A stretch of DNA of 64,000 nt. Origin: Acidobacteriota bacterium (lineage in GTDB: Bacteria > Acidobacteriota > Terriglobia > Versatilivoradales > Versatilivoraceae). This document shows, in pieces, positions 147 to 11,693 of the stretch. How positions within the stretch are numbered: position 1 is the stretch's first letter; each line of letters begins with the position of its first letter. The stretch spans positions 9,768 through 73,767 of the forward strand of contig JAKEER010000295.1 of NCBI GenBank assembly GCA_022616615.1, read 5' to 3'. A model generated the notes under the pieces. It did not search any database and was not told the DNA's origin. It saw only the letters and a program-made list of their open reading frames with translations. The translations under genes and the position numbers were made by a program.

Positions 147-3100
147 ATGCTGATCCAGAACCTTTTTGAGCGAAATATCCATCGCCCCATCAACGGGGTC
201 GTCAAGGCCGATCAACTCGACGATTCCTCCGTCTGGCAGGAGCTGGACGAGTTTGTCGTCACTCGCGAACTGGACCAACATCTCCGCCGGTTCTTCTCCG
301 CTTACACCGACGCCATCAGCCAGAAGAAAGACCCCGATGTGGCAAGCAAGATTGGCGTCTGGGTTTCCGGTTTCTTTGGATCAGGCAAATCGCACTTCAT
401 CAAAGTTCTTTCCTACCTGCTTCGTAACCACGAGCATTCCCATGAGGGCCAGACCAAGAGAGCTACTGAATTTTTTCAAAGCAAGATCCAAGACGCCATG
501 CTGTTTGGCGACATTCAGCGATCTGTCGCATCAAATACGGATGTCATTCTATTCAATATCGACAGCAAGGCCGACAGTCGCGCTGGACGGGACGCCATTC
601 TCCAAGTCTTCTTGAAGGTCTTGAATGAAATGCAGGGCTACAGCGGCGATCATCCGCACATCGCTCACATGGAACGCTATCTGGAGAGCAAGGGAAAGCT
701 GCAACAGTTTCACGAGGCGTACGAGGCGGCGACAGGCGCCGGCTGGCACACCGAGCGCGACGCCTATCAGTTCAACCGGGACGAAGTCGTCAAGGCGCTC
801 ACCGGCACCCTCAACCTCAGCAAAGAATCAGCGGACAAGTGGATTGATGGGGCCGAAACCAGCTTTGCCCTTACTATTGAGAACCTCTGCAAGTGGGTTA
901 AAGACTACCTGGACTCCAAAGGTCCGGATCATCGCCTGCTGTTTCTGGTCGATGAAGTCGGTCAGTTTATTGGCACTGATTCCCATCTCATGCTCAATCT
1001 GCAAACAATCACTGAAGAATTGGGAACGATCTGCCAAGGCCGCGCCTGGGTCGTCGTCACTTCGCAAGAAGACATCGATTCTGTCCTGGGTGAGATGAAG
1101 CAAAGCCGCGCCAACGATTTTTCCAAGATCCAGGGCCGATTCAGAACTCGTCTCTCGCTGTCCAGTGCCAACGTCGATGAAGTCATTCAATCCCGGCTGC
1201 TGGCCAAGCACCAGGAAGTGGAGGAGGAGCTTCGAGACATTTTCAAGACCAAAGGCGACATCCTTAAAAACCACCTCACCTTCACCCAATGCGGGATGAC
1301 GCTCAAGCCCTATAAGGACCGCGACGACTTCGTTAGGAACTACCCCTTCGCTCCTTACCAGTTTCAGCTCGTACAAAAAATCTTCGAAGCCATTCGACGG
1401 GCCGGAGCCACCGGTCTGCACCTGTCCCGTGGAGAACGTTCCGTCCTCGATGCTTTTCAGTCGGCAGGCAAGCAAGTCGCACTCAACGAAATCGGGATTC
1501 TTGTCCCGCTCTATCGATTCTACCCATCCATTGAGAGCTTCCTCGACACTGCGGTCAAACGCACCATCGACCAAGCCAGAGTCAATGCCAGCCTGGAGGA
1601 CTTTGACATCCACCTTCTCCAAGTTCTTTTCCTCATTCGATACGTCGATGAAATGAAAGGCAACGTCGATAACCTGGTCACCCTTTGCCTCGACCAGATC
1701 GATGCCGACCGGCTGGCACTGCGGCGCAAGATCGAAGCTAGTCTTGGACGGCTGGAGAAAGAAACGCTCATCAGTCGCAATGGCGATATCTATTTCTTTC
1801 TCACCAACGAAGAAAGAGACATCGGCCGGGAGATCAAGTCGGTTGAGATCAACTCTGGTGAAGAGCCAAAGCTCCTGGGTGAACTCATCTTCACTGAAGT
1901 CTTGAAAGATCAACGAAAGTACCGCTACCCCGTCAACAAGATGGATTTCGCATTCAACCGCGTCTGCGACCTTTACACAGTTGGCAATCGGTCAGACGGG
2001 GCTCTCCAAGTCTCGGTCGTCACGCCTTTGAATGATGACTACGACTACTACGACAAAGGGAAACGTATTCTCGAAAGTGGCGCGGAAGGTGGGCAAGTCC
2101 TCTTCAAGTTGGGCAATGACGACAAGCTAAGCCGCGAACTGCGGATCTATCTGCAAACCGACAAATACGTCAAGCATAAGAGCGATGGCACTCAGGCAGA
2201 ATCAACCAAAAAGATTCTCAGGGGAATCGCTGAAGACAATCAGGAACGGCGCGGCCGGCTCGTCACCTTGCTAGACGAGCTGTTAGCGAGTTCGGAAGCC
2301 TACGCGGCCAGCCAGCAGCTCAAACTGAAGTCCACGGGCTCCATCACGTCGCTCCACGAATCATTGGAATATCTCGTTCGAAACACTTTCAACAAGATGG
2401 GTTATCTCAAGAAGATCCATCCCGATCCTCTTCCGGAGATCCAGGCCATCCTTCGCAGCAATGATATCGCTCAAGAGACGTTGGACTTGGACATGGAGGA
2501 TGGAAACAAGCAAGCTGTGGATTACCTCCGCAATTATGTCGAACTCTGCTCGGCCACGAGCAAGCAAGTTGTGCTGTACGACCTCATCGACAAAAAGTTC
2601 TCCCTGCGGCCTTACGGCTGGCCTGAAAACGAAGTGCTTGTCATCGTGGCTCGTCTTCTGGTTCTGGGGCAAATCAGCCTCATGATGGATGGTGCCCTCA
2701 TTCCGCTCGACAAGGTCTACGAAGCCATCACCTCACCCGCCAAGCAGCGCAAGATTCTCCTCATCAAACGGCAGACTTCCGATCCAGCGGCTGTGCAGAA
2801 AGCCCGAAGCCTGGGGAAGGAGCTGTTTCATGAAATGGGACCAGACGGTGAAGACCCACTCTTCACGCATTTGCAGATAAAACTCAAAGGCTGGCAGTCC
2901 TCCCTCAACACTTACAAGCCTCTGGCCGACACTGGCGACTACCCGGGCAAAGCGGAGATCGATGATGGACTAGTCCTGATCAAGAAGCTGCTCAGCGACA
3001 CCAGCAGCTTCAAGTTCATCGAACGCTTCAACACATTGAAAGACGACCTGCTGGAATTCGCTGGTCATTTCCAGGATCTGGAGCAGTTCTACGAACACCA

Positions 3101-3740
3101 GAAGCCCTCCTGGGAGAAACTTCGGAAGGCGCATAGCCAGTTCCAGCTCAACCGAATGGAACTGGACCGCGATGGTAAGGCAGGCCCTCCTTTCAGGCGC
3201 ATTGAGCAGATACTTGACGCCAAGAGTCCCTATGCATTGATCCATGAGGGAGAGAAACTGATTAACTCTGTGGCTGGAGTCAACACGGCACTGCTCACCG
3301 AACGCCGCAATCAGGTTGACGAAAGGATCAACGGCTACGTGGCCACTCTCAGCAAAGACATCGCTGCGGCCAACGGCGACGAGAACCTTCGCGTGGCCTG
3401 CCTCCGCCAGTTGGAGTCAGTCCGCCAGCAGATCGCTTCAGAAAACAGCCTGGCCCACATCACCCAAGCGGAAGGCGAGGCTCTCAAGGAATTCGATTTG
3501 GCTGTGGCTCGGATTGAGGTATTCGCCAAGAATGCTGCCGAGAAGGAGACGATCAAAGATCCATCGAAAGACCCGCACAAGCCAACGTCAGCCATCAAGA
3601 AGCAGCGGATTGTCGAACCCGCCAAGCTGGTCAAGACGATCTATCTCGAAACGACAGAGGACGTAGCTGGCTTTCTTGATGATTTACGGCAGGAGCTTGA
3701 AACGGGCATCAACAACAACGAACGCATTCAGATCCGCTGA
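147..3740 (+). CDS. brxC: BREX system P-loop ATPase BrxC (DUF499 family), apparently intact
   Basis: 1197-aa ORF. The N-terminus MLIQNLFERNIHRPINGVVKADQ and Walker A GFFGSGKSHFIKVL are typical of BrxC/PglY. Size and position in the brxB-brxC-pglX-pglZ-brxL order fit. Confidence 0.85.
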   Translation: MLIQNLFERNIHRPINGVVKADQLDDSSVWQELDEFVVTRELDQHLRRFFSAYTDAISQKKDPDVASKIGVWVSGFFGSGKSHFIKVLSYLLRNHEHSHEGQTKRATEFFQSKIQDAMLFGDIQRSVASNTDVILFNIDSKADSRAGRDAILQVFLKVLNEMQGYSGDHPHIAHMERYLESKGKLQQFHEAYEAATGAGWHTERDAYQFNRDEVVKALTGTLNLSKESADKWIDGAETSFALTIENLCKWVKDYLDSKGPDHRLLFLVDEVGQFIGTDSHLMLNLQTITEELGTICQGRAWVVVTSQEDIDSVLGEMKQSRANDFSKIQGRFRTRLSLSSANVDEVIQSRLLAKHQEVEEELRDIFKTKGDILKNHLTFTQCGMTLKPYKDRDDFVRNYPFAPYQFQLVQKIFEAIRRAGATGLHLSRGERSVLDAFQSAGKQVALNEIGILVPLYRFYPSIESFLDTAVKRTIDQARVNASLEDFDIHLLQVLFLIRYVDEMKGNVDNLVTLCLDQIDADRLALRRKIEASLGRLEKETLISRNGDIYFFLTNEERDIGREIKSVEINSGEEPKLLGELIFTEVLKDQRKYRYPVNKMDFAFNRVCDLYTVGNRSDGALQVSVVTPLNDDYDYYDKGKRILESGAEGGQVLFKLGNDDKLSRELRIYLQTDKYVKHKSDGTQAESTKKILRGIAEDNQERRGRLVTLLDELLASSEAYAASQQLKLKSTGSITSLHESLEYLVRNTFNKMGYLKKIHPDPLPEIQAILRSNDIAQETLDLDMEDGNKQAVDYLRNYVELCSATSKQVVLYDLIDKKFSLRPYGWPENEVLVIVARLLVLGQISLMMDGALIPLDKVYEAITSPAKQRKILLIKRQTSDPAAVQKARSLGKELFHEMGPDGEDPLFTHLQIKLKGWQSSLNTYKPLADTGDYPGKAEIDDGLVLIKKLLSDTSSFKFIERFNTLKDDLLEFAGHFQDLEQFYEHQKPSWEKLRKAHSQFQLNRMELDRDGKAGPPFRRIEQILDAKSPYALIHEGEKLINSVAGVNTALLTERRNQVDERINGYVATLSKDIAAANGDENLRVACLRQLESVRQQIASENSLAHITQAEGEALKEFDLAVARIEVFAKNAAEKETIKDPSKDPHKPTSAIKKQRIVEPAKLVKTIYLETTEDVAGFLDDLRQELETGINNNERIQIR

Positions 3741-3746
3741 AATGCT

Positions 3747-3888
3747 AACCACGGATTTCACCGATGACACTGATCAAAGCAGGAAAAGCCAGATCACGTG
3801 AGGTTAATCAAGCGAATTGCGGAGGCGCACAAAACGGTTGAGTTTTTCCACCTCAGGTTCCATCTGTGTTATCCGTGTCATCCGTGGT
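3747..3888. repeat. Inverted pair of CACGGAT-word repeats (R1 3747-3779 forward, R2 3864-3888 reverse) in the brxC/GxxExxY junction
   Basis: R1 is aaccacggatttcaccgatgacactgatcaaag. R2 is ctgtgttatccgtgtcatccgtggt, the reverse complement of accacggatgacacggataacacag. The arms are separated by ~85 nt. Confidence 0.85.
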
Positions 3889-3891
3889 CGA

Positions 3892-4278
3892 GTGAATTCA
3901 GTGATTGCCAAAGAGTTGATCCACAAGGAACTGAGCGAGTCGATCATCGGAGCGGCGATGACGGTTCTGAACACGTTGAAGCCAGGCTTGGATGAAAAGC
4001 TCTATGAGAAAGGATTGGTCATCGAGCTTCGCAAACGGAATCATCAGGTGGAGCAACAGCGGCAGTTTCCGGTGCGCTATGAGGGTCAACTGATCGGAAC
4101 ACTCACCCCAGACTTGATTGTTGACGGCCTGGTGATTGTAGATACCAAGGTTGTCACGGCATTCAACGAAACCCACATGGCGCAGATGTTGGGTTACCTG
4201 AACATCACCGGATTGCGCTTAGCATTATTGCTGAACTTCAAGAACGCCAAGTTGGAATGGAAGCGAGTGGTCCGCTAA
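3892..4278 (+). CDS. GxxExxY protein (PD-(D/E)XK nuclease-fold family)
   Basis: ELSESIIGAAMTVLNTLKPGLDEKLYEKGLVIEL contains the G-x-x-E-x-x-Y motif (GLDEKLY). D...DTK and LLLNF...EWKRV are typical of the family. The start is taken at GTG 3892, after repeat R2; the longer ORF from 3817 translates the repeat. Confidence 0.8.
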   Translation: MNSVIAKELIHKELSESIIGAAMTVLNTLKPGLDEKLYEKGLVIELRKRNHQVEQQRQFPVRYEGQLIGTLTPDLIVDGLVIVDTKVVTAFNETHMAQMLGYLNITGLRLALLLNFKNAKLEWKRVVR

Positions 4279-4498
4279 CCACGGATTACACGGATGACAC
4301 GGATAAAGGCTGAAGATCAGATTGTGCGAAACTGATTTCAACCTGCATTTACTATTCAGGTTTTAGGCTGCTATCTGTTGAACAACCTGGATCGTTATTG
4401 GTTTGAAGGCTGACGAACATCCTTGTCGTCCACAGGTCTGTGACTCGTGGCCGATTATCGCAATGCTTTAATCGGTGTTATCCGTGTCATCCGTGGTT
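4277..4498. repeat. Inverted pair of CACGGAT-word repeats (R3 4277-4309 forward, R4 4473-4498 reverse) in the GxxExxY/pglX junction
   Basis: R3 is aaccacggattacacggatgacacggataaagg and overlaps the GxxExxY stop codon. R4 is cggtgttatccgtgtcatccgtggtt. A ~160-nt spacer lies between them. Confidence 0.9.
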
Positions 4499-4512
4499 GT
4501 CTTTTGCTTTAT

Positions 4513-5186
4513 ATGAATCGCACCAAGCTCAAGAACTACGCTACCCAGGCACGTCGCGACTTCATCCAGGCCGTCACAGATCGTGCGGCCTACCACGGCC
4601 TCACCGCCAAGAAGGTGGAGCCTGTTACCCAGAAGGGTGACGTGGCCATCATCGAGGGCACGGCGTTTCCCCGGAGCGCCGTCCGGAAACGGAAGCGGCT
4701 GGAAGAACGGATCAGCCAGCATGGCTTTCAGCAGACGATGGAAGCGATGGCCTATACCTGGCCACAGGGTTGTACAAAGACCACCTGCAAACTTACAAGA
4801 AGCGCCCCATCTACTGGCTGTTTTCAAGCGGCAAACAGAGGGCGTTCCAGTGCCTTGTCTATCTCCACCGCTACCACGAAGGCACCCTGGCACGAATGCG
4901 CACGGAATACGTGATTCCCCTTCAGGGCAAGATCGCAGCCCGTCTTGAGCATCTAGCGCGTGATATTGCAGGAGCGGCCTCGACGACTCTCCGTCGAAAA
5001 CTGGAGAAGGAACGTGACGCGCTTCTAAAACATCAGAACGAACTACGCACGTTCGACGAAAAACTGCGCCACTACGCCGACCAGCGCATCAGCCTGGACC
5101 TCGATGATGGTGTGAAGGTGAACTACGGCAAGTTCGGCGACCTCCTGGCTGAAGTTAAAGCCATAACCGGAGGAAGCGACGACTAA
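4513..5186 (+). pseudogene. pglX: pglX (BREX adenine methyltransferase) remnant: N-terminal ~83 codons fused out of frame to C-terminal ~135 codons, methyltransferase core missing
   Basis: 4513-4761 encodes MNRTKLKNYATQARRDFIQAVTDRAAYHGL...MEAMAYTW, a PglX N-terminus. 4770-5186, in another frame, encodes ...KKRPIYWLFSSGKQRAFQCLVYLHRYHEGTLARMRTEYV...DLDDGVKVNYGKF, a PglX C-terminus. Intact PglX proteins are roughly 1100-1250 aa. Confidence 0.8.
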
Positions 5187-5203
5187 CTTCAGCCAAGAGG
5201 CTT

Positions 5204-5291
5204 GACCACGGATCACACGGATGGCACGGATAGTGCAGGTGCAAGACAAGGAATTGGATTTCTATCGGTGTCATCCATGTGATCCGTGGTT
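5204..5291. repeat. Inverted pair of CACGGAT-word repeats (R5 5204-5233, R6 5262-5291), hairpin with 28-nt loop
   Basis: R5 is gaccacggatcacacggatggcacggatag. R6 is ctatcggtgtcatccatgtgatccgtggtt. 26 of 30 positions are complementary. Confidence 0.9.
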
Positions 5292-5335
5292 CAATAACCG
5301 TCGTTGAATCGCTTGTAAGGAAGGAGTAACTCCAT

Positions 5336-5569
5336 ATGTCTTCGAACGTCACGTTGCAGGAAGCCCAGGCCCACTTGGCTGAGCTGATCGCCAAACTGGC
5401 CCCTGGTGAGGAAGTCGTCATCCTCCAAAATGACCAACCCATAGCGAAGCTCGTAGGCGAACCCGCGGCGATCCGTCAACCCCGGCAACCGGGCAGCGCC
5501 AAAGGCAGGCTAACGATCTTGGCAAACGATGACGACCATCTGGATGACTTCAAAGAGTACATGCAATGA
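5336..5569 (+). CDS. Type II antitoxin, Phd/YefM (prevent-host-death) family
   Basis: 77 aa. MSSNVTLQEAQAHLAELIAKLAPGEEVVILQNDQPIAKLV is a typical Phd/YefM-like N-terminus. The ATGA overlap with the downstream PIN gene indicates translational coupling. Confidence 0.75.
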   Translation: MSSNVTLQEAQAHLAELIAKLAPGEEVVILQNDQPIAKLVGEPAAIRQPRQPGSAKGRLTILANDDDHLDDFKEYMQ

Positions 5570-5952
5570 GGCTGCTGCTCGACACGCATACGTTCTTGTG
5601 GTTTCTGCTGAATGACGCGCAATTGACTGAAACCGCAAGGAGCTTGATTGCCGATTCCGGCAACGACATTGAGATCAGCCCGGCCAGCATCTGGGAGATT
5701 GCCATCAAGATCAGCTTGGGCAAGTACGCGCTAACCGAACCGCTCGAAGCGTTCATGGAACGCGAGATGACGGCAAACGGATTCCGCCTTTTGGCGCTTG
5801 AGATCAAGCACATCTCGGTGGTCACGACGCTGCCGTTCCATCACCGCGATCCCTTCGACAGATTGTTGGTGGCACAGGCCATCGCCGAGCAGATCCCAAT
5901 CATCAGCGGAGACCAGATGCTGGATGCCTACCCCGTGCAGCGGCTGTGGTAA
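5566..5952 (+). CDS. vapC: Type II toxin VapC (PIN-domain ribonuclease)
   Basis: 128 aa. LLLDTHTFLWF...SPASIWEIAIKISLGK...HHRDPFDRLLVAQA carries the PIN acidic residues and typical VapC motifs. Confidence 0.8.
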   Translation: MRLLLDTHTFLWFLLNDAQLTETARSLIADSGNDIEISPASIWEIAIKISLGKYALTEPLEAFMEREMTANGFRLLALEIKHISVVTTLPFHHRDPFDRLLVAQAIAEQIPIISGDQMLDAYPVQRLW

Positions 5953-5959
5953 GGATTTT

Positions 5960-6122
5960 GATCACGGATAGCACGGACAACACGTGTGAAGTAAGCCTTG
6001 ACACCATGAAGAATGTAGCCCCAGTGACTTTATTTTATGGCAAGGTCCCCTGTTGATGATGCCAGTAACGACCCGAGTTGGGACCAAGTCTCTTATCAGT
6101 GTTATCCGTGTCATCAGTGGTT
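5960..6122. repeat. Inverted pair of CACGGAT-word repeats (R7 5960-5984, R8 6097-6122) in the vapC/pglZ junction
   Basis: R7 is gatcacggatagcacggacaacacg. R8 is cagtgttatccgtgtcatcagtggtt. This pair is a more degenerate copy of the same family. Confidence 0.8.
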
Positions 6123-6133
6123 GAGAACTGCTA

Positions 6134-8777
6134 ATGGATTCCAAGCAAATCAACGACGCGCTGGACCGCGTCTTTAACCAGGAGGCAGAACGGATCGTCT
6201 TCTGGAACGATCCTGATGCTGAGTTCCGGGAGTTCGTGGACCGTCTCCCCATTCTCACGTTCGGCAGCGTGAGCGTGAACATTCTGCGTCTGGACCAGAC
6301 CAGCGCCCTTGAGGCCAAGATCCGGTTGGAACAGGAAGCTCCAGATCATCGCTTCTTGGTCTACTCGCCAACGGAAGAGCCTGACTACGAGAAGGACTGG
6401 TTGCTGGACATCCGCCTCTTCAGCCGCAGCTTTCGTGCTGACAAAGCTTCAATCGTGCTCGACGAGCTTGGCCTGACAAACCAACACCTTCGGCTACACC
6501 TGGCCGAACGGCGCAAGTTCTTCGACAACAAGGAGCGCCTTCAGAAGATGAAGTCCCTGGTCGCGGCAGACGACGCCGCTGCCGATCTGGACCAGAAGAT
6601 GATCGCGGTGGTCGCTAAGGCGGAGCAGCCTGAGTTCTTCAACATCATCCGCACACTATTCCACACTTTCGCCGAAACAGCCCAGGGCATTGACTTGGAT
6701 ACTCCGCCTACGGTCTGGGAGCAGGTTGAGAGATTTGATTTAGCCGAGCCCTTCTGGCAGATGGTGAGAACTTGCATTCGGTTATTCGGAACAAGACCCG
6801 AACCTGAAGAACTTCCTCATTCAACTGTTTGTTACCGATTTTGCTCAGCAGTTAAAGACAGGGTTGCCACCCGCTCTTCAGCATCTTCAATTGCCCTCGG
6901 GAGGCCGGGCGAACGCCGTTGTCTGCCTGGCTCAGTGGCGCGACAGTAGCAGCAAGGGAAGCAGCTATGATCGTCTTTCCGCCTTGGTTGCTGCCCTGAT
7001 CAAGCTCTGGGATTGCCTCGGTTCCACTGAGATGGGTGGTCTGATTGACGTGATGACGTTCCGGATTGTGGACCAGAAAATTGCCAACACCTTGTGCGAG
7101 CGAGTGAAGAACACGGCAGACACGATCAATGCGGATGAGGTCCGTGCCATCGCGACCCGCCGACAAGCAGGCCATTGGGCTTCACTAAGCGTTTCCGGAG
7201 CGCCCGAGGTTCTTCGAAAGCCACTCCATGCGGTTTTCGATGCGTTGGTGGCTGCCAGCGAGTTCTTTGCCTTGCGGAACCAACACCAGAGCAGCTTCGA
7301 TTTTGCTGATGCCGCTGGGCTGTATCGCGCCTATGAGAAGGAACTCTACCGCTACGACCAGTTGTATCGGCATTTCTGCGAGTCCGCCGATGATGCCGAG
7401 GCGGAGGGCTGGGATGTTCTCAAGTCTCTGCGCGAGTCTTTGGAAGCCTGTTATGCCAACTGGTATCTCCCTACGCTTGGCCTGAGTTGGGGCAAGTTTG
7501 TCGAACCAGCAAGCCAACTCCCCTTGTTGACCCATTGGCGGATTGATGAAGTTCCCAGCCAGCAGCAGTTCTTCGAAGAGCACGTTCGGAGACGATTGGA
7601 AGAAGCCGAGAACCGCAAGGTTTACGTCATTATCAGCGATGCTTTCCGCTATGAAGCAGCCGAGGAGCTGAGCCGCGAACTCAACGGCAAGTATCGCTTT
7701 GAAGCCAGCCTCACATCTCAACTGGGGGTGCTGCCTTCTTATACCGCTTTGGGGATGGCCAGTTTACTGCCCCACAAGAAGTTGGCCTACAAGGCCAATG
7801 GTGAGGTTCTCGTGGACGATTTGCCCACCGTTACGCTTGAGGACCGGAACGATATCCTTGCTGCGAGAAGCGGAATGACTTGCAAGCCTACGGATTTGAC
7901 GGAGAGAAAGAAGGACGAAGGAAGAGAGTTCGTCAGTGGAAAACGAGTGGTTTACATCTACCACAACACGATTGACGCCACGGGTGAATCGAACATCACT
8001 GAGGGACGAACTTTTCATGCAGTGCGAACGGCGATTAATGAGCTGGCCTCCCTGGTGAGTTACATCATCAACAACCTGAACGGCAACTTCATTCTGATCA
8101 CGGCAGATCATGGGTTCCTTTTCACTGAGACAACTCCCGGTGAGCCTGAGAAGAGCAAAGTTCAGCAGAAGCCGGAAGGCACCGTCCAATTAAAGAAGCG
8201 ATATCTGATCGGGCAGGATCTTCCCGACCATGAATCGGTTTGGCACGGCAGGACTTCAATCACAGCAGAGGCCGAGGGAGATATGGAGTTTTGGATTCCC
8301 AAGGCAGCCAATCGGTTCCATTTCCTTGGTGGAGGACGCTTTATCCACGGTGGCGCGATGCCGCAAGAGACTGTCGTTCCGCTCATTACGGTGAGGCACG
8401 TCAAAGGGAAGTCTATTAAGGACACCACTACCAAGTTTGTCACGGTCCATGTGCTGGGAAGCAGCCACAAGATCACGACGAACCGGCACCGATTTGAATT
8501 GATTCAGATGGAGCCAGTAACCGAGCGGGTCAAACCGGTGACCCTCAAGGTAGCCATCTACGAAGGCGATGAGCCCGTGACCAACATCGAAGCCGTGACC
8601 TTCGATAGTGCCTCAGACAAGATGGAGGACCGGAGAAAGTGGGTTCCTTTGGTCTTGCGGGATCGGCAGTACAACAAGAAGACCTCCTACTATCTGATTT
8701 TGCGAGACTCCAAAACCAACCTCGAACAACAGCGGGTTGAAGTGACAATTGACAAGGCATTCAGCGATGACTTCTGA
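6134..8777 (+). pseudogene. pglZ: pglZ (BREX alkaline-phosphatase-fold protein) with a single frameshift near 6765
   Basis: The N-terminal ORF (6134-, frame 2) reads to ...LAEPFWQMV. Homology continues in frame 3 from 6768 as ELAFGYSEQDPNLKNFLIQLFVTDFAQQL...AQWRDSS...ITADHGFLF (PglZ domain). A frame-3 stop TGA lies at 6765-6767. Confidence 0.75.
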
Positions 8778-9145
8778 CACCGACAAACTGCAATTCAATC
8801 TGGACGATCTGCTGAACCGGCACTTTGCCGGCCGGGTGGTTCGCAAGGATCTGACCAAACTGGTGAAGGAAGGCGCCAACGTTCCAGTGTACGTGCTGGA
8901 ATATCTGTTGGGATCGTACTGCGCCTCAAACGATGAGGCGGTCATCGAGGACGGTCTCAAGACGGTGAAAAAGATCCTCGCGGAAAACTACGTCCGGCCC
9001 GACGAGGCCGAAAAAGTGAAATCGACGATTCGGGAGCGCGGCAGCCTGAAGGTGATCGACAAGATTTCCGTAACACTTAATGAAAAAAGGGATGTCTACG
9101 AGGCCCTGCTTGCAAACCTGGGAGTGAAAGGCGTGGAAGTGACCA
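8767..9145 (+). pseudogene. brxL: brxL (BREX Lon-like protease) 5' remnant, about 125 of about 680 codons
   Basis: MTSDTDKLQFNLDDLLNRHFAGRVVRKDLTKLVKEGANVPVYVLEYLLGSYCASNDEAVIEDGL...VRPDEAEKVKS...VIDKISVTLNEKRDVYEALLANLGVKGVEV matches the BrxL N-terminus. The ATG overlaps the pglZ end. After ~9145 the ORF continues to 9672 in unrelated low-complexity sequence. Confidence 0.75.
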
Positions 9146-9149
9146 GTAG

Positions 9150-9309
9150 CACCTCTGCAGCACTTCGAGCACCGGCGGCAGGACTTCATAATCGACTTCG
9201 ATCAAGTCGAGCGCCTCTTCGGCCAGATGTGAGCACGCTCTCTCCGCTGGTGCAGCAGAGCGACCGCCTCCTTCAAACTCTTGGGTGTGGCATAATCAAA
9301 GGCGCGCAA
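9150..9309 (-). pseudogene. Juxtaposed fragments of xanthine dehydrogenase/CO dehydrogenase family genes (FAD-subunit N-terminus plus a molybdopterin-subunit internal piece)
   Basis: The minus strand reads (TTG)RAFDYATPKSLKEAVALLHQ, like a CoxM/XdhB N-terminus. It then switches frame to AEEALDLIEVDYEVLPPVLEVLQ, like a CoxL/XdhA internal motif. Both pieces are far too short to be functional. Confidence 0.4.
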
Positions 9310-9578
9310 GAGGTTTCCTCACTTTCTTTTCGCTGTTTTTCGCTGTGTCTCGGAACAGTTCCAGCAGGATTTCTCCAGGCAGTTAGAATGAAATGGAGCG
9401 CTGGCGGCTGGCATCACAAGCGAAGCCCACGCGGCACGCAACGAGGATCACTGGGCGCTCCACAGGCCTGCAAAGGTACTCGGCCTCCCTCACTTCAGCC
9501 GCCGCCGGGGTCAGAAGGCCAGAAACTTGCTAGGTCGCTTGGCGCGATGAGATTCACAGTTCAGTCAAGTTCAGAAGA

Positions 9579-9653
9579 GTGGCAGCGGCATCCTGCCGCT
9601 GCCGGCCAGCGGCATCCTGCCGCTGCCGGCCAGCGGCTGGAAGCCGCTGCCAC
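9579..9653. repeat. Tandem 24-bp repeat (2.5 copies); each unit is a CAGCGGC/GCCGCTG hairpin, and the whole is bracketed by gtggcagcgg/ccgctgccac
   Basis: cagcggcatcctgccgctgccggc occurs at 9583-9606 and again at 9607-9630. A variant, cagcggctggaagccgctgcc, follows. Confidence 0.9.
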
Positions 9654-9820
9654 TTTAGCTGTCCTCGGCTGACCCAGCGGCCTGATCTCGCTGTAGCCCA
9701 GGAGTCAGCAAGGGCTGTACCTCGACACGATCACCTCGAGGGAGCCTTGCCTTTTTCCTAGACACTGTTGAATTGTTCATCTAAGATCTCGCCTGCTTTG
9801 CGCAGGAAGAAGTCAGCTTT

Positions 9821-9924
9821 CAGGTCTCGGGCTCCGTGCAATCTGAAACCGCAAACCCCGCCAGGTTCGGAAGAAAGCAACGGTAGTGGAGCTTCAGATG
9901 TGCCGCGGAATCACCCGGGGCCTG
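9821..9924 (+). ncRNA. ffs: Signal recognition particle RNA, small (4.5S) type
   Basis: GCCAGGUUCGGAAGAAAGCAACGG matches the conserved SRP domain IV (E. coli CAGGUCCGGAAGGAAGCAGCC), including the GGAA tetraloop. The closing helix caggtctcggg/cccggggcctg has 9 WC and 2 GU pairs, and there is an internal helix atctgaa/ttcagat. The position directly upstream of dnaX-ybaB-recR is a common synteny. Confidence 0.7.
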
Positions 9925-10046: not shown

Positions 10047-11693
10047 ATGAGCTATCAGGTGATTGCCCGCAAGTATCGTCCGCAGACCTTTGACGAGGTG
10101 GTGGGCCAGAATGCTGCGGCCCAGACGCTGCGCAACGCCATTCTGCAGAATCGCATCGCGCACGCGTATCTTTTCGCAGGCGCGCGCGGCGTCGGCAAGA
10201 CCTCCACGGCTCGCATCCTGGCCAAAGCGCTCAACTGTGCGCAAGGGACGACGGTGACGCCCTGCAACGAGTGCGCCTCCTGCGTCGAAATCACTGCCGG
10301 AAACTCGCTTGACGTCCTCGAGATCGATGCCGCTTCAAATCGCGGCATCGACGAGATCCGCGAGCTGCGAGAGAACGTGAAGTATGCCGCCGCGCGGGAC
10401 CGTTACAAGGTCTTCATCATCGACGAAGTGCACATGCTGACCACTGAGGCCTTCAATGCGCTGCTGAAGACGCTGGAAGAGCCACCCCCGCAGGTTGTGT
10501 TTATTCTAGCGACCACGGAGTTGCACAAGGTGCCGTCGACTATCTTGTCGCGCTGCCAGCATTTCAATTTCCGGGCCATCAGTTACCAGGAGGTTCTGGG
10601 GCAGTTGAAGAAGATCGCCGCTGAAGAGCGCATTCAGATCAGCGACGAAGCCCTGAATGCCATTGCCCGAGCCTCGGAAGGCAGCCTGCGGGATGCGCAA
10701 TCGCAGCTGGACCAAATCATCTCGTTCTGCGGTAGTGAAATTCGAGATGAGCAGGTTCGCGACCTGCTGGGGATTGTTCCCCAGCAGGTGCTGGACGATT
10801 TCACCGCAGCGCTCGTACAGCAGGATGCGCGGAAGGTTCTGGGGCTGGTCGATCATCTCGTGTCGAGCGGGCTGAACTTGCAACACTTTGTGCGAGAGAT
10901 GCTGGCGCACTTTAGAAACCTGCTGATGTTGAAGATTGCGGGCGAAGACCCGAAACTCATTCCGCTCGCGCCGGCAGAAATGAGCCGCGCCCGCGAGCTG
11001 GCGGCGCATTTTTCAGAAGAGGACCTGACGCGCTTTTTCAACATTCTGGTGTCGGCGGACGGAGAAATGCGCTGGTCGTCGCAGCCACGCTTTCATCTGG
11101 AGATGACGCTCACTCGAATTGTCCATGCGAAGCGGCTCGTCCCGATTGAAGAACTGATTGCTCAACTGGGCGGCGGGGGTCTGCCAGCGGCTGGAGATCC
11201 TCCGGCCAAAGGCTCTACGCAATTGCCTCAGGCTCCTGCAACTAGCCGTTTCACGGCGGCAGGGCCGGCCCGGTCCGTGTCTGAGACTATGTCTGCCTTA
11301 TCAGCGGCTACTGAGAGCAGTCTGGTCGAAGCGTTGAGCGCTGCCCTCGCCCAGCGTTCGCCGATGGTGTCTTCGCTGATGGAGCACGCGCGCGACATCC
11401 GGCAGACGGACGCGGGTCTTGAAATTGAGTTTGGAAAGCAAGACCGGTTTTCGCTTGACATGCTCCAGTCACCAGAAAACTTCAACTTGGTAAAGGAAGT
11501 GACAGATTCCATCGCTGGGAAGCCGCAAACTGTCAAGCTGCTGCTGGAGGCTGGCGCCGCAGGGGAAGCGATGCCTGTGCCTGCGCCGGACGAGAAAAGG
11601 GAGTTGCTGGAACGGGTGAAGGAAGATGCCGGTGTGAAAGCCTTTCTAGATACTTTTCATGCTGAGATCACGGATGTAAAGGATTTGAAGTAA
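10047..11693 (+). CDS. dnaX: DNA polymerase III subunit gamma/tau
   Basis: 548 aa. YRPQTFDEVVGQ, the Walker A GARGVGKTSTARILAK, the Zn module CNECASC, and DEVHML with SRCQHF are all present. Confidence 0.95.
   Translation: MSYQVIARKYRPQTFDEVVGQNAAAQTLRNAILQNRIAHAYLFAGARGVGKTSTARILAKALNCAQGTTVTPCNECASCVEITAGNSLDVLEIDAASNRGIDEIRELRENVKYAAARDRYKVFIIDEVHMLTTEAFNALLKTLEEPPPQVVFILATTELHKVPSTILSRCQHFNFRAISYQEVLGQLKKIAAEERIQISDEALNAIARASEGSLRDAQSQLDQIISFCGSEIRDEQVRDLLGIVPQQVLDDFTAALVQQDARKVLGLVDHLVSSGLNLQHFVREMLAHFRNLLMLKIAGEDPKLIPLAPAEMSRARELAAHFSEEDLTRFFNILVSADGEMRWSSQPRFHLEMTLTRIVHAKRLVPIEELIAQLGGGGLPAAGDPPAKGSTQLPQAPATSRFTAAGPARSVSETMSALSAATESSLVEALSAALAQRSPMVSSLMEHARDIRQTDAGLEIEFGKQDRFSLDMLQSPENFNLVKEVTDSIAGKPQTVKLLLEAGAAGEAMPVPAPDEKRELLERVKEDAGVKAFLDTFHAEITDVKDLK

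Follow-up and report, generated by a model that had tools for sequence, protein, structure and literature searches.

A pglX remnant of two out-of-frame ends in a decaying BREX type 1 island of an acidobacterial genome

The pglX gene of a BREX type 1 island in this acidobacterial genome is retained only as its two ends, joined out of frame and lacking the methyltransferase core, and we are highly confident that the locus is a real pseudogene. A single internal deletion of ~2.86 kb removed residues ~84–1036 of a ~1180-aa BREX-1 methyltransferase. The stretch analyzed here, hereafter the window, comprises 64,000 nt (C525:9768–73767) of a metagenome-assembled genome (MAG) of 9.58 Mb in 918 contigs that is 94% complete and 8% contaminated. 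The island occupies the leftmost 9.5 kb of the window and the preceding 1.1 kb of the contig. Profile searches place its genes on one strand in the order brxA-brxB-brxC-[GxxExxY]-pglX'-[vapBC]-pglZ'-brxL', which is the BREX type 1 order (brxA-brxB-brxC-pglX-pglZ-brxL) with two inserted cassettes, GxxExxY and vapBC. Its features, in window coordinates, are as follows.

Directly upstream of the window on the contig: brxA and brxB
147–3740, + strand: brxC, BREX P-loop ATPase, intact, 1197 aa (PDLC02471 positions 1–1189 of 1190, 1410 bits)
3838–4278, + strand: GxxExxY / PDDEXK_3 gene between brxC and pglX, start uncertain (3838, 3892 or 3901)
4513–4761, + strand: pglX N-terminal stub, 83 codons, corresponding to residues 1–83 of the full-length relative L098 at 78% identity
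4755–4761, + strand: deletion junction TACCTGG, shared by the N-terminal (AYTW) and C-terminal (YLA) alignments
4755–5186, + strand: pglX C-terminal stub, 143 codons plus TAA, corresponding to L098 residues 1037–1179 at 82% identity, in a frame different from that of the N stub
4762–4914, + strand: out-of-frame tail of the N-stub frame, 50 nonsense codons, TGA at 4912–4914
5336–5952, + strand: vapB-like antitoxin (5336–5569) and PIN-domain toxin (5566–5952), between pglX and pglZ
6134–8777, + strand: pglZ, frameshifted at about 6768–6777 with no residues lost (PDLC02547 positions 1–236 and 238–854 on two ORFs)
8749–9153, + strand: brxL remnant, first ~135 of ~688 codons (PDLC02506 positions 5–125 of 680; TIGR02653 positions 3–119 of 675)
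9155–9452, + strand: right-hand scar, two copied segments beside the brxL truncation

The brxC product scores 1213 bits against NF033441 (cut-off 400) and aligns over residues 1–1197 with its relatives, at identities of up to ~70%. The GxxExxY gene scores 129 bits against TIGR04256 (cut-off 35), and Pfam PF13366 was found on the called genes in L091 and L092. The vapB-like/PIN pair gives weak matches to NF050009 and TIGR01552, with Pfam PhdYeFM_antitox (weak) and PIN on called genes.

Two ends of PglX and the joint between them

Homology to both ends of PglX is found in the position directly after brxC. The N stub, translated from 4513–4761, matches the PADLOC PglX profile PDLC02521 at positions 1–87 of 1174 (E 1.2e-21) and NCBIfam NF033452 at positions 1–85 of 1210 (E 3.3e-14), in agreement with the sequence-only reading, which had recognized a PglX N terminus here. 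The C stub, translated from 4770–5186, matches PDLC02521 at positions 1043–1171 of 1174 (E 2e-59), PDLC03600 at 1067–1200 of 1205 (E 6.4e-64) and NF033452 at 1086–1210 of 1210 (E 5.6e-56). That reading had also seen a C terminus in another frame, and rightly so, but the homology begins with YLATG at 4755 and not with KRPIYW. The NF033452 scores of the two stubs, 51.7 and 190.1 bits, respectively, are below the family cut-off of 500.

The PglX profile positions between the stubs, ~88–1042, are without any match, and the catalytic motif N/D/S-PP-Y/F/W ([NDS]PP[YFW]) is absent from all forward frames of 4400–5300. The remnant thus contains no N6-adenine methyltransferase domain with an NPPY-type motif, and the loss of the core that had been read from the sequence is upheld. 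Neither stub has acquired secondary stops. The C stub is reachable only from an internal TTG at 4770, and gene finders call a 138-aa ORF from a TTG. The shift of frame at the joint rules out a fused protein: translation from the N stub runs into nonsense, and the C stub lacks a proper start. A programmed frameshift linking the stubs was considered and rejected, there being no slippery heptamer at CCTGGCC.

The position of the joint was determined by blastx of 4400–5300 against full-length PglX. The N-terminal alignment, in the frame of 4513, ends at 4761, whereas the C-terminal alignment, in the frame of 4770, begins at 4755, such that the two overlap by the 7 nt TACCTGG (4755–4761). A search of 4755–4775 for microhomology, as had been proposed, thereby returned a positive answer. 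The true position of the joint is a few bases to the left of the 4760–4770 interval first given. The window sequence across it is GAAGCGATGGCCTA-TACCTGG-CCACAGGGTTGTACAAAGACCAC.

In relatives, the left site reads ...GCC TA(C/T) ACC TGG / TTC AAC... (A-Y-T-W-F-N) and the right site ...CGC / TAC CT(C/T) GCC ACx GGx TTC TAC AAG (R-Y-L-A-T-G-F-Y-K). The deletion would therefore have occurred between two short direct repeats, one in the A-Y-T-W codons and one in the Y-L-A codons, with one copy kept, either by replication slippage or by another route of microhomology-mediated illegitimate recombination. Slippage and microhomology-mediated deletion classically leave such a scar, in which one of two short direct repeats is retained, and a sequence common to both breakpoints, as reconstructed from relatives, is present once at the joint. 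With CTG as the ancestral Leu codon the microhomology would be 7 nt; with CTC, the codon of the closest relatives, it would be TACCT and one additional base. Its length could thus be 5–7 nt, the ancestral bases at both breakpoints being taken from relatives because no intact ancestor nearer than ~80% protein identity was found.

The extent of the deletion was estimated from relatives at 80 genomic loci fetched via the C stub and 80 metagenomic loci fetched via BrxC. Relative to the closest full-length relative (L098, 1180 aa), pairwise mapping of the stub endpoints, which the sequence-only reading had called for, leaves residues 84–1036 missing, equivalent to 2859 nt or ~2.86 kb. The distance between the two breakpoints is 2094–4300 nt (median 2907 nt) in 104 relatives and 2.77–2.94 kb among the 12 closest; the window has a 7-nt overlap instead. 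[quoted passage not shown] When these limits are scaled by position, which makes them approximate, roughly 40% of the N-terminal domain survives, counted from its start, together with the final ~140 residues of the C-terminal domain. What is lost is most of the N-terminal domain, the methyltransferase and target-recognition domains in full, and the beginning of the C-terminal domain.

The missing middle was not found elsewhere in the assembly, either by blastn with the stub region or by tblastn with the two closest full-length PglX proteins; the only match was a distant pglX in a second BREX locus, at 23–26% identity. A BrxC search of metagenome contigs for nearer intact relatives of the island reached ~70–76% identity at best, and the exact 33-nt left flank had no matches in JGI metagenome contigs.

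The joint in other assemblies

Exact-protein look-ups located the same locus in two further assemblies, GCA_022615935.1 (29-kb contig) and GCA_973798195.1 (95-kb contig). Over 13.7 kb, each matches the window at 99.993% identity, with the junction and the pglZ frameshift identical; the sole differences, a SNP at 10872 and a 1-nt indel at position 9699, fall outside the BREX genes. Among Logan per-run contigs, those of SRR16971109 (4113 nt) and SRR16971108 (3910 nt) contain the junction and the pglZ frameshift with no mismatches. The contig of SRR16971104 (1805 nt; L177) also holds the junction and ends at 5878, before pglZ; its sole difference in 1805 nt is a C to G change at 4762 (L177 position 689), abutting the junction heptamer. 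A one-off misassembly of the junction is therefore very unlikely, though these assemblies probably stem from one study (the SRR numbers are consecutive) and, not being fully independent, demonstrate reproducibility rather than wide distribution.

The population could be polymorphic, or pglX could be under an on/off switch, with an intact allele coexisting and the commoner deleted form being the one assembled. Disruption and phase variation of pglX are described as frequent in BREX/Pgl systems (PMC9122589, citing Goldfarb 2015 and Sumby & Smith 2003), and the SNP beside the junction in one run (4762 C to G) indicates that the population is less than strictly clonal. Unlike repeat-tract slippage or inversion, however, a deletion of 2.86 kb cannot be reversed, and the joint has no repeat tract, the locus no recombinase gene and the entire assembly no copy of the 2.86 kb. 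In every assembly, moreover, pglZ and brxL are defective too, and no alternative contig was found. We consider coexistence with an intact allele very improbable.

An assembly artefact, in which the conserved 5' and 3' ends of pglX were misjoined in a genome that truly carries the full-length gene, is exceedingly improbable. The source is a fragmented MAG of 918 contigs with 8% contamination, and the junction is known from assembled contigs, which would allow for such an error. Only 7 nt are common to the two sides of the joint, however, far under any assembler k-mer and incapable of collapsing a de Bruijn graph. The joint is also identical in the two further NCBI assemblies, whose contigs differ in length, and present in three per-run Logan assemblies, and the missing middle is on no orphan contig.

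Decay of the island and related loci in the same genome

The pglX deletion is one of three independent inactivating lesions in the island. In pglZ, blastx follows one frame to 6775 and the next from 6777, a 1-nt-type frameshift in non-homopolymer sequence. In brxL, blastx covers the first ~128–135 of ~688 residues and stops at 9150–9153. The core genes of a functional BREX type 1 system are thus not all intact: pglX is deleted, pglZ frameshifted and brxL truncated, whereas brxA, brxB and brxC look intact. With pglZ and brxL broken beside the loss of pglX, the island is dead, neither methylating nor defending. We infer that this decay is recent from the intact state of brxA, brxB and brxC and the lack of extra stops in the stubs.

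The truncated end of brxL abuts the right-hand scar. Its first segment (9155–9234, 80 nt) is a 97.5% copy of C525 6595–6674, inside a molybdenum-hydroxylase large-subunit gene 12 kb upstream; the second (9233–9452, 220 nt) is an 82% direct copy of C525 8326–8539, just upstream of brxA. The island is consequently bracketed by diverged direct repeats, and 9155–9452 could represent filler DNA plus old island-flanking repeats. Farther right, a palindromic block of tandem ~24-nt GC-rich units occupies 9573–9660, for which Rfam gives only spurious sub-gathering matches to microRNA families. A bacterial small SRP RNA (RF00169) lies at 9825–9923 (+), upstream of dnaX-ybaB-recR, with 69.6 bits against a gathering score of 40.

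The search for another pglX that had been suggested was productive: profiles run against the genome revealed, on contig C370 (also L178–L180; JAKEFR010000847.1), a second BREX-1 locus that is apparently complete. Both GCA_022615935.1, on a 67-kb contig, and GCA_973798195.1 contain this locus as well, and its occurrence in three binnings places it in the same organism. The gene order is brxA, brxB, brxC (1241 aa), PglX N-half, Fic, PglX C-half, pglZ (849 aa), brxL (684 aa) and Argonaute. Its pglX is split into a 694-aa half with an Eco57I-type methyltransferase domain and a 624-aa TRD/CTD half, between which lies a 288-aa Fic-domain gene (PADLOC PDC-S04/SoFic-like) with overlapping stops and starts. 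The Argonaute is a long form in which an SLFN_AlbA_2 domain is combined with Piwi. Part of this locus, including the split arrangement, recurs on contig C183 at 82% identity, in a copy that is either a paralogue or derived from a contaminating relative.

These findings change the picture drawn from the sequence alone, which had other BREX genes remaining and called the loss of the modification gene notable for self/non-self balance. The remaining genes are not all kept, given the state of pglZ and brxL, and the point about self/non-self balance does not stand: the island is broken at three genes, PglX is needed for defense as well, and a second pglX exists. Site recognition by PglX underlies both defense and methylation in the BREX-1 systems studied (PMC11842806). 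In E. coli HS, pglX could be deleted (PMC6326788), and the slow-growing deletions in Acinetobacter BREX are those of PglZ, BrxB and BrxR, not PglX (PMC9122589), with the caveat that a pglX deletion was not recovered in Salmonella StySA (PMC9009780).

The stubs might still be kept for a residual role, for example if a C-terminal-domain fragment were to bind DNA or BREX partners and modulate the second BREX system. The C stub has 143 uninterrupted codons at ~82% identity to relatives, the 138-aa ORF is called by gene finders from its TTG, and in E. coli BrxX the PglX C-terminal domain contacts DNA and Ocr (PMC11842806). There is no canonical start or translational coupling, however, and the fragment lacks the conserved metal-site aspartates, which are located further upstream in the C-terminal domain. 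A recent deletion would account for the absence of decay just as well, and the PglX of the second locus is only 23–26% identical to relatives of the deleted gene. A retained function is hence scarcely credible, and we take the stubs to have been neutral since the deletion.

A paralogous, older and more decayed remnant of this island type lies beside tRNA-Glu(CTC) at C549:12693–14476. It consists of the last ~100 codons of brxC (75% nucleotide identity), GxxExxY (87% amino-acid identity), one inverted CACGGAT pair, vapB (82% amino-acid identity) and a frameshifted vapC; pglX, pglZ, brxL, brxA, brxB and most of brxC are absent. The counterpart of window 4307–5204 is lacking, and the joint falls inside the repeat that follows both GxxExxY and pglX in the window. 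Apparently, pglX was lost whole there through recombination between flanking repeats. The remnant shares with the window the architecture of brxC 3' end, GxxExxY, CACGGAT pair and vapBC, at 75–78% nucleotide identity, but differs in that its pglX is gone entirely with the joint in a flanking repeat, whereas the window pglX is gutted internally at a microhomology. It shows the same decay path taken further, and the one genome thereby offers a natural decay series of an intact locus, a three-lesion locus and a near-erased remnant.

At all junctions from brxC to pglZ, a CACGGAT repeat of three units with a 9-nt period is present as an inverted pair:

3747–3774 (−) and 3862–3888 (+)
4277–4304 (−) and 4471–4498 (+)
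5204–5231 (−) and 5264–5291 (+)
5960–5987 (−) and 6095–6122 (+)

The two pairs that were folded form long hairpins (z −4.6 and −8.5), and the repeat region has no Rfam match. Genome-wide, the repeat has only 51 matches, 9 of them on C525 and 4 on C549. It also occurs at nearly every BREX junction of another locus (L024) and in two more (L021 and L016), from MAGs labeled as different phyla. As the cause of the pglX deletion the repeat was rejected, its nearest copies (4471–4498 and 5204–5231) lying away from the joint. More broadly, the collapse of pglX might belong to a wider turnover of a BREX island built like a cassette array, with the CACGGAT hairpins as insertion and recombination points at which genes such as GxxExxY and vapBC were gained and pglX lost, as on C549. 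We regard this as unlikely; if true, it would amount to an integron-like platform inside a defense island.

Comparison with known pglX loci and deletions

Other forms of pglX were observed among the collected loci. Three MAGs retain C-terminal remnants only, beginning at about residue 951 (L012), 872 (L017) and 1031 (L020) of 1177, and the pglX of L021 has an internal deletion of residues ~588–877. In metagenomic BREX-1 loci, tandem pglX genes follow brxC, three in L121:3757–13644 and two in L123:3649–10785; apart from the third in L121, which is cut off by the end of the contig, all are full-length, and the copies differ in their identity to the L011 PglX (47–59%).

The window pglX is a well-mapped pseudogene of a known kind and a case of ordinary gene decay; the split-pglX/Fic locus and the junction repeats are the more unusual features nearby. 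On its own it matters little, but it is a clean example of how the methyltransferase of a defense system dies, and of a whole BREX island decaying in an organism where a second BREX locus persists. It also calls for caution with automated defense calls, because fragments of this kind still match the PglX, PglZ and BrxL models strongly.

Compared with full-length BrxX (E. coli HS, PMC11842806; NF033452), the stubs correspond to both ends of the protein and lie in the canonical position after brxC, but ~80% of the protein is missing, including the SAM-binding/NPPY methyltransferase and target-recognition domains. Disrupted or irregular pglX genes are reported in BREX loci (Goldfarb et al. 2015, as cited in PMC9122589). 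Like those loci, the window has an inactivated methyltransferase gene in an otherwise recognizable BREX-1 operon; it differs from them in that the lesion is a large and irreversible microhomology deletion and not a premature stop, a repeat-tract slip or a recombinase-linked duplication. As in microhomology deletions of other bacterial pseudogenes, short direct repeats 2.86 kb apart appear to have left one copy with no mobile element at the joint. Nothing about the deletion is unusual by that comparison, in which the 7-nt figure depends on the ancestral codon reconstructed from relatives.
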